Virus record (IMG/VR): IMGVR_UViG_2716884766_000001
Location: 60,504 to 124,503 of that record
Origin: a virus
Strand: one strand, 5' to 3'
DNA length: 64,000 bases
Positions 56,925-57,642 of this stretch are shown piece by piece. Each line of letters starts with the position of its first letter. Position 1 is the first letter of the stretch. The notes below the pieces were generated by a model, which saw only the letters and a list, made by a program, of their open reading frames with translations, was not told the DNA's origin and ran no database searches. A program made the translations under genes and the position numbers.

Positions 56925-57042
56925 CTACATAATAACCATCTTCATCTCGATACTTATCGACATCAGAATATACCTCTACCTTTAGTTCTGCTAGTACTTC
57001 TTCAAGTTGTTCAAGCAGTTGCTTGAGTCTGTTTCGCTGCAT
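56893..57042 (-). CDS. acidic protein, 49 aa (MQRNRLKQLLEQLEEVLAELKVEVYSDVDKY...DDDDGYPD)
   Basis: Manually translated. Confidence 0.65.
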   Translation of the reverse strand: MQRNRLKQLLEQLEEVLAELKVEVYSDVDKYRDEDGYYVGEDDDDGYPD

Positions 57043-57076
57043 AAAAAAATCCCCGACTACTATATGTAGCGGGGAA
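57043..57076 (-). terminator. terminator of the riboswitch operon
   Basis: TCCCCG.CTAC-loop-GTAG.CGGGGA followed by a U-tract. Confidence 0.7.
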
Positions 57077-57081
57077 TACTT

Positions 57082-57174
57082 TTAAGCATTCTTCTCTTTG
57101 TAGAGAAGCATAGTCTCAGCATAGATTAGTGATAGGAAAACTACTGAAGCAGCAGAGATCCATAGTACTTCCAT
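57082..57174 (-). CDS. 30-aa membrane peptide (MEVLWISAASVVFLSLIYAETMLLYKEKNA)
   Basis: TAATG coupling to the DUF4278 peptide. Confidence 0.6.
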   Translation of the reverse strand: MEVLWISAASVVFLSLIYAETMLLYKEKNA

Positions 57175-57281
57175 TACTTAGCGTGAGCAATGCCACGATA
57201 GGTAAGTTCGACCTCTTTTTGCTGCTGAGCTTTCTTGTTGTTGGTGTCGTACTTAACACCACGATAAGTGACTTGTGCCAT
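57174..57281 (-). CDS. DUF4278-type peptide, 35 aa (MAQVTYRGVKYDTNNKKAQQQKEVELTYRGIAHAK)
   Basis: Two YRG motifs; CAGGAG RBS; follows the riboswitch. Confidence 0.85.
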   Translation of the reverse strand: MAQVTYRGVKYDTNNKKAQQQKEVELTYRGIAHAK

Positions 57282-57316
57282 GAGATTTTCTCCTGAAATA
57301 GTAGGGGTTTTTAATC

Positions 57317-57363
57317 CCGTTCCTTCAGTCGGCTTTTGCGTCCCCCTGCCAGAGGGATGAACG
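57317..57363 (-). ncRNA. glutamine riboswitch aptamer (Downstream-peptide type), proximal copy
   Basis: CGUUCA-UCCCUC-loop-GGGGGA-CGCAAAAGCCGACUGAAGGAACGG upstream of a YRG peptide. Confidence 0.8.
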
Positions 57364-57365
57364 AT

Positions 57366-57594
57366 CCGTTCCGAGTCGGCTTACTTGCGTCCTATGATGT
57401 AAGCATCACATTCACCTTCAACTTTCGTACGAAGGTAATCAATAAGGTACTCGTGTGCGTCAGAGTTGAGACTCTTATCACTAAGGATCTCTATTCTGTT
57501 GCGGTTCCAGTCTGCACACGACATATCCCAGTGGAATGAGTTGTGTTCAGATAGAAGTGTTGCGAGTAGTGCTACTTCAATCATTGGATGAACG
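57366..57594 (-). ncRNA. glutamine riboswitch aptamer, distal copy, split by an ORF in P2
   Basis: 5' half CGUUCAUCC at 57594-57586; 3' half GGACGCAAGUAAGCCGACUCGGAACGG at 57392-57366. Confidence 0.7.
57381..57584 (-). CDS. 67-aa hypothetical protein nested inside the riboswitch aptamer
   Basis: MIEVALLATLLSEHNSFHWDMSCADW...CDAYIIGRK. Confidence 0.7.
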   Translation of the reverse strand: MIEVALLATLLSEHNSFHWDMSCADWNRNRIEILSDKSLNSDAHEYLIDYLRTKVEGECDAYIIGRK

Positions 57595-57642
57595 TAAAGG
57601 TATGTTAGCATACCTACACATATTTAGCAACTTTATGTTACC

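Follow-up and report, generated by a model that had tools for sequence, protein, structure and literature searches.

A relative of the Prochlorococcus phages P-HM1 and P-HM2, itself a T4-like Prochlorococcus myovirus, carries a complete gene of 67 codons inside the P2 loop of a predicted glutamine riboswitch. Sequence comparison indicates that this RNA consists of two interlocked cores, and we assign a probability of roughly 0.5 to the reading that it senses glutamine, encloses the nested gene and controls both this gene and a downstream peptide gene. The parts of the element in the window, meaning the whole stretch of 64,000 nucleotides analyzed here, are listed in Table 1. Upstream, nrdA, nrdB and a 2OG-Fe(II) oxygenase gene lie on the same strand.

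The sequence motifs were recovered where the original prediction, made from the letters alone, had placed them, all on the minus strand; these include the CTAAATA promoter-like motif and the hairpin upstream of the element. A similar promoter-like motif is found at most 45 nt upstream in 169 of 183 homologous elements, and the 5' hairpin has a mean energy of -6.9 kcal/mol, compared with -1.7 for shuffled sequences. The predicted closing terminator can be read from the sequence as a stem with a U-tract, but is missing from the list of a simple terminator scan of the window. As a correction to the earlier description, a further conserved ORF of 30 codons precedes this terminator.

Table 1 Parts of the element, in window positions; the last column gives the basis or a remark.
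Feature	Position	Strand	Basis or remark
CTAAATA, T4-late-type promoter-like motif	57621..57627	-	consensus match only
5' hairpin, probably at the transcript start	57598..57615	-	hairpin kept while sequence varies
Outer core, whole span	57594-57317	-
Outer core, P1a 5' strand (C1-C5) and A6	57589..57594	-	pairs with 57322-57318
Distal 5' half	57594-57586	-	sequence
P2a 5' arm, includes start codon of nested gene	57580..57588	-	covariation, folding model
Nested gene, 67 codons	57381..57584	-	ATG at 57584, TAA ending at 57381; PHROG 6471
P2a 3' arm, codons Ile63-Ile64-Gly65	57390..57398	-	codon bias at Ile63
Outer J2/3: G22, C23 (57387), E-loop 5' strand	57382..57389	-	5DDP match except 23-60 swap
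Distal 3' half	57392-57366	-	sequence
Shared P3, 5' strand	57374..57381	-	length and inner-end pair covary with 57334-57327
Inner permuted core: 2-nt J3/1, P1b hairpin, 3-nt loop starting with G60 (57366)	57359..57373	-
Proximal unit, compact	57363-57317	-	sequence, Rfam
P2b, compact in the window	57341..57357	-
Inner J2/3 with C23 (57338), without E-loop	57335..57340	-
Shared P3, 3' strand	57327..57334	-	covaries with 5' strand
Outer core: E-loop 3' strand and G54, P1a 3' strand, G60 (57317)	57317..57326	-
Shine-Dalgarno of downstream peptide gene	57290..57294	-	sequence
35-aa DUF4278 (IF17-like, YRG) peptide gene	57174..57281	-	Pfam PF14105
30-codon hydrophobic ORF overlapping the YRG stop, before terminator	57082..57174	-	conserved in 32 fetched loci; no family
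Bulged GC stem and U-tract, probable terminator	57041..57075	-	read from sequence and Rfam-search alignment

A conserved gene in the P2 loop

Homologues were sought by the RNA junction instead of the protein, which yielded 186 distinct complete elements. Eighty of these carry ORFs in both P2 loops (slots a and b), 58 in the second only and 27, the type of the window, in the first only; 19 are without an ORF and two have a long non-coding loop. In most homologues, P2b thus holds a second ORF, of 49–69 codons. The same aptamer halves flank the ORF in 78 of 80 homologues on viral contigs (the other two are cut by contig ends), in 8/8 isolate phages first examined and in four more, and none of 200 shuffled windows reproduced the pattern. 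The start codon of every nested ORF is ATG, placed at +9 to +21 and in nearly every case at +10/+11, that is 10–11 nt after C1. Every one encodes at least two cysteines, and their N-terminus is on average hydrophobic.

Judged by its sequence variation, the looped-out ORF is a real gene under purifying selection, as the original prediction of a complete reading frame in P2 would imply. It fills PHROG 6471 (E 3e-28) and has 848 protein homologues, with 73% identity to the counterparts in P-HM1, P-HM2 and MED4-213; isolate annotations list it as T4-GC 429 and syn9 gp196, and the P-HM2 orthologue is PHM2_179. Among 73 alleles, dN/dS is 0.11 against the window and 0.14 across all pairs, third codon positions are the most variable, and start, stop and frame are conserved. 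An upstream in-frame ATG giving 76 aa was rejected as the true start, being found in 13/108 homologues. Gene callers often stretch the protein to 76–94 aa via starts in the 5' hairpin (P0001-P0120); the conserved start is that of the 67-aa form only. A weak match to a protein of the podovirus P-GSP1 (E 0.1) was likewise discarded, as the aptamer halves are absent there.

The predicted structure of the nested protein (pLDDT 84) comprises a hydrophobic helix (residues 2–13) and a helical hairpin (23–52), and Cys23 and Cys59 are invariant. The product is probably an exported or membrane-anchored disulfide protein. With regard to function, Pfam gave no family, a comparison with the PDB gave no structural match, and matches in BFVD and the Atlas were uncharacterised phage proteins only. 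Between the protein families of slot a and slot b, any relationship is weak at best (hhalign probability 61%, E 8e-5).

The YRG (DUF4278-type) peptide expected downstream was confirmed by a match to Pfam PF14105 (30.4 bits, cut-off 25.3), and such an ORF follows 148 of the 186 elements. A Shine-Dalgarno-like motif stands before 91% of the homologous YRG ORFs versus 0% of the nested ORFs of slot a. In P-HM2, the orthologue of the nested gene, a second nested gene and the YRG gene (PHM2_179-181) are transcribed during infection, as middle class in the light and late in the dark, whereas the flanking genes on both sides remain middle class (PMC5082946 S2 Table). This common shift in timing class, unlike that of the flanks, supports a single transcription unit at the transcript level.

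Pairing of the start codon across the nested gene

The burial of the start codon in stem P2, the central claim of the original prediction, was borne out by conservation and covariation across the ORF. No variation was seen in pairs 1–2 of P2a, and pair 3 can form in 52/52 distinct ends (39 C-G, 11 U-A, 2 U-G; 0/1000 shuffles), with a double change in at least three places on the ORF tree; these covariation counts share ancestry and represent neither independent events nor probabilities. Pairs 3–5 of P2b behave in a like manner. In slot a, pairing involves a mean of 2.8 of the 3 AUG bases, versus 1.3 with control segments from the ORF interior. At Ile63, where the third codon base lies opposite the G of the start codon, 73/73 alleles use ATC or ATT and 0/73 use ATA; among interior Ile codons, ATA is the commonest (136/217). 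The codon after Ile63 faces an unpaired position and is free to vary. These patterns support selection on the AUG-burying P2a pairing at the RNA level. In a ligand-free folding model, P2a closes across the ORF with a probability of about 0.9.

The end of the gene is also part of the aptamer. As had been claimed for the final codons, outer J2/3 doubles as codons Arg66 and Lys67 plus the first two bases of the stop codon, which in the window lies inside the E-loop strand. In most elements, the stop codon is part of a core or P3 strand; divergent phages have it ahead of the 3' arm.

Proposed mode of regulation

We propose that a short middle/late operon begins with a type 1 glutamine riboswitch specific to phages, which is built from two interlocked cores and holds the first gene of the operon in its interior. 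A ribosome starting at the nested AUG and stopping in the E-loop strand would melt P2a, J2/3 and the start of P3, so that the folded sensor and the translated gene would exclude each other; this mutual exclusion, anticipated in the original prediction, follows from the geometry. The nested gene, being without a Shine-Dalgarno motif, would be loaded on nascent or unfolded RNA, and its AUG would be accessible only before synthesis of the 3' arm, about 190 nt further on, or as long as ribosomes keep the RNA open. High glutamine would close P1a and the 23-60 pair, lock the fold and thereby lower the output of the nested gene; whether glutamine indeed switches this gene off we regard as an even call. 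The folding model has P2a closed without ligand, so that repression of the nested gene may not depend on glutamine at all. The switch can do without this gene, as elements lacking an ORF are common.

The same closure at G59/G60 would reset access to the Shine-Dalgarno sequence of the IF17-like peptide, in either direction. A CC able to pair with this downstream motif can instead be bound by G59/G60, which hints at an OFF switch. In folding comparisons, the motif was more open without ligand in 53 of 112 leaders and less open in 5, and equally accessible in both states in 54, including the closest relative of the window (L001). In the host leader of gifB from Synechocystis, downstream control is ON (PMC6212724). 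The helix of the putative expression platform, a 3' hairpin, showed no covariation above control (3.35 vs 3.34), so that the downstream peptide could be switched with either polarity. DUF4278 is part of IF17, the glutamine-synthetase inactivating factor (PMC6212724). On this model, the nitrogen state of the infected cell would set the output of two phage proteins, one small and exported or membrane-bound, the other a probable inhibitor of glutamine synthetase. A more far-reaching version, which we hold only tentatively, is a two-site, possibly cooperative riboswitch with one permuted core, in which both P2 loops are swappable gene cassettes and glutamine binding would directly shut the inner genes and switch the IF17-like gene oppositely, so that cyanophages would possess a nitrogen switch made of RNA only, with opposite outputs.

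Alternatively, the nested ORF could be a passenger in a tolerant loop, translated from nascent RNA at any glutamine level, with the switch controlling only the downstream IF17-like peptide and the P2 pairing kept solely to preserve the aptamer. We consider this possible but rather improbable. Crystal constructs replaced the P2 loop with a tetraloop, compact loops are common, P2a closes without ligand in the folding model, and the constant position of the AUG could stem from a single inherited insertion. However, the AUG pairing is kept in both slots across families of less than 40% identity, synonymous sites are constrained for it, and any translation of the ORF would still wreck the outer core.

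Another reading takes translation as a second input: ribosomes on the nested ORF would hold the sensor open, and the downstream peptide would read glutamine together with translation capacity, in an attenuation-like manner. The location of most stop codons inside core or P3 strands and the fact that mutual exclusion acts in both directions would fit. This reading is nevertheless unlikely, given that conservation extends to the protein sequence, including two invariant cysteines, that the stop precedes the 3' arm in divergent phages, and that no run of sensor codons was seen (the glutamine content of the nested ORFs is 2.1%, with none in the ORF of the window).

Two interlocked cores on a shared P3

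Comparison of the elements indicates that the two units interlock. P1 and the 23-60 pair are each formed by the distal 5' half together with the proximal 3' half; the segments between these halves fold into a single P3, shared by both units, and a second core that is circularly permuted. The E-loop is split, with its 5' strand in unit 1 only and its 3' strand in unit 2 only. The two P3 strands change length together (5/5 or 8/8), with 97.8% matching versus 52.3% in shuffled pairs, and the pair at the inner end is compensated as U-A, G-C or A-U; in the window, P3 consists of 6 pairs with two C-A mismatches. The bases at position 23 in unit 1 and position 60 behind unit 2 are Watson-Crick partners in 278/278 elements (187 C-G, 91 G-C; C23(57387)-G60(57317) in the window); the search patterns prescribed the former base and left its partners free, and the G23 set may derive from few events. 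Of the 91 G23 elements, only 2 allow the 23-60 pair within unit 1. Watson-Crick pairing of the converse, inner pair was seen in 270/278. Cross-unit pairing occurs together with an ORF in P2a in 21 G23 elements.

P2 and P3 covary; P1 is nearly invariant, which is compatible with the junction but no proof by covariation. In folding calculations, the interlocked model is lower in energy in 185 of 186 elements, with a probability of 0.75–0.85 for P1b and of 0 for P1 within a unit; P1a and P3 are not populated in the ligand-free model.

By all structural features that can be tested on the sequence, the outer core is a type 1 glutamine riboswitch, with glutamine as the predicted ligand. It equals the crystallised junction (5DDP construct), E-loop included, except for three paired swaps (5-55, 7-20 and 23-60), and contains the junction nucleotides C1, G22, G54, C58 and G59. 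The circularly permuted inner core has a hairpin for P1 and the same pocket bases, but no E-loop. In an Rfam search, the proximal unit was assigned to RF01739 (Glutamine/glnA) with 33.9 bits, just under the gathering threshold of 35, so that no match is reported at the locus at that threshold. The ORF-bearing core is too long for this model; natural ORF-less relatives reach 38–43 bits over both units, where Rfam aligns one aptamer and skips 48 nt in L3. The annotated glnA element of S-CREM1 spans 99 nt. The sole above-threshold Rfam match in the window is a PhotoRC-II RNA (RF01717, 69.9 bits) at 44156-44056 (-).

The original prediction had labelled the element a Downstream-peptide RNA. This type 2 glutamine riboswitch (RF01704) has a related 5' motif and precedes YRG peptides in picocyanobacteria, but its 3' stem is not formed here, with nine non-standard positions, and the score of 19 bits against a gathering threshold of 33 led us to reject it in favor of RF01739.

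It is very improbable that the fold is real but serves another ligand, or acts without ligand by stabilising or processing the RNA. The inner core without E-loop and the compact unit just under the Rfam cut-off would be in line with such a role. Against it, the 23-60 pair, described as ligand-induced (PMC6212724, PMC5393176), covaries, the junction nucleotides equal those of the crystal RNA, and a DUF4278 gene lies downstream as in hosts. Finally, two independent side-by-side aptamers, each with its own P1, P3 and 23-60 pair, as first proposed, can practically be dismissed: each unit does hold both halves and in C23 elements either pairing gives C-G at 23-60, but the halves pair across units and not within, the within-unit 23-60 pair fails in 89/91 G23 elements, only one half of the E-loop is present per unit, P3 strands of 5 nt are unable to form a local helix, and the folding model gives within-unit P1 no probability.

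Relation to known RNAs

The phage element shares with type 1 glutamine riboswitches (glnA, RF01739; gifB leader, PMC6212724; 5DDP, via PMC5393176) the three-way junction, the E-loop, G22/G54/C58/G59, the long-range 23-60 pair and a downstream DUF4278 gene. It differs by its two interlocked cores on a shared P3, one of them permuted and without E-loop, by C23-G60 in place of G23-C60, by a P2 loop that accommodates a complete gene, with aptamer nucleotides serving as the start and stop of this gene, and by its occurrence in phage contigs only. Tandem glnA RNAs likewise contain two motif copies in a row (PMC2864571; review PMC10265488). The 2010 alignment includes such phage-type sequences, and in its tandem glnA rows the compact first unit is aligned as one aptamer with a local P3 and the ORF-bearing unit lies in the flank (PMC2864571); the passages on tandem glnA in both articles mention neither an interlock nor a nested ORF. 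Tandem glnA RNAs and phage glutamine riboswitches have already been published. A search of the open literature turned up no account of genes nested in this way, nor of interlocked cores.

Riboswitches are assumed to precede (or follow) the genes under their control; in this element, a gene lies within the aptamer itself. With the interlock, the "tandem glnA" RNAs from marine metagenomes can be read in a new way, and the failure of Rfam to detect ORF-bearing elements is explained. The arrangement also points to phage control of host nitrogen assimilation via the IF17-like peptide. Competition between translation and RNA structure is also a feature of ribosome-mediated attenuators with leader peptides, and group I introns similarly carry ORFs in peripheral loops, looped out of a structured RNA. 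In contrast to both, the RNA described here is a predicted metabolite aptamer and the ORF encodes a conserved folded protein without sensor codons; unlike for group I introns, no sign of splicing was seen at the element.

Distribution and possible exchange of loops

A pattern search for the C23 variant found the element solely in phage-like contigs. This search gave 11 matches in a genome collection, none of them in a cyanobacterial chromosome; ten look like misbinned phage contigs, and one (Streptomyces) is without both outer halves. Two contigs of about 190 kb within assemblies labelled Synechococcus (MAG) and Nonlabens (L212, L217) are cyanophage-like and probably misbinned or contaminating.

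Among isolates, both loops contain ORFs in P-HM2, P-SSM4 and syn9, one loop does in P-SSM2, and none in S-PM2 and S-CREM1; the estuarine S-CREM1 (L225) also provides an isolate example of the G23-C60 variant. Like the C23 elements, G23-C60 variants (L227-L346) have nested ORFs, with their own two-cysteine families. The content of the second loop differs among phages with an identical or near-identical first ORF (L022 vs L024, L004 vs L009, L050 vs L059), for which recombination through the shared flanks would be the simplest reading. One compact P2 hairpin (UUCGCUAUU...AAUAGCGAA) occupies slot a in some phages and slot b in others (L150, L178, L189, L196, L223 (S-PM2) and L225 (S-CREM1)); its presence in both slots suggests exchange between them. 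A second P2 loop with a 61-nt non-coding insert closed by a stem (L035:2223-2312) is intermediate between compact and ORF-bearing forms. In P-SSM4 (L083), the element lies immediately 3' of pstS and of another structured RNA (file 79 of the 2010 supplement), which is probably manA; manA also adjoins the element in L165.
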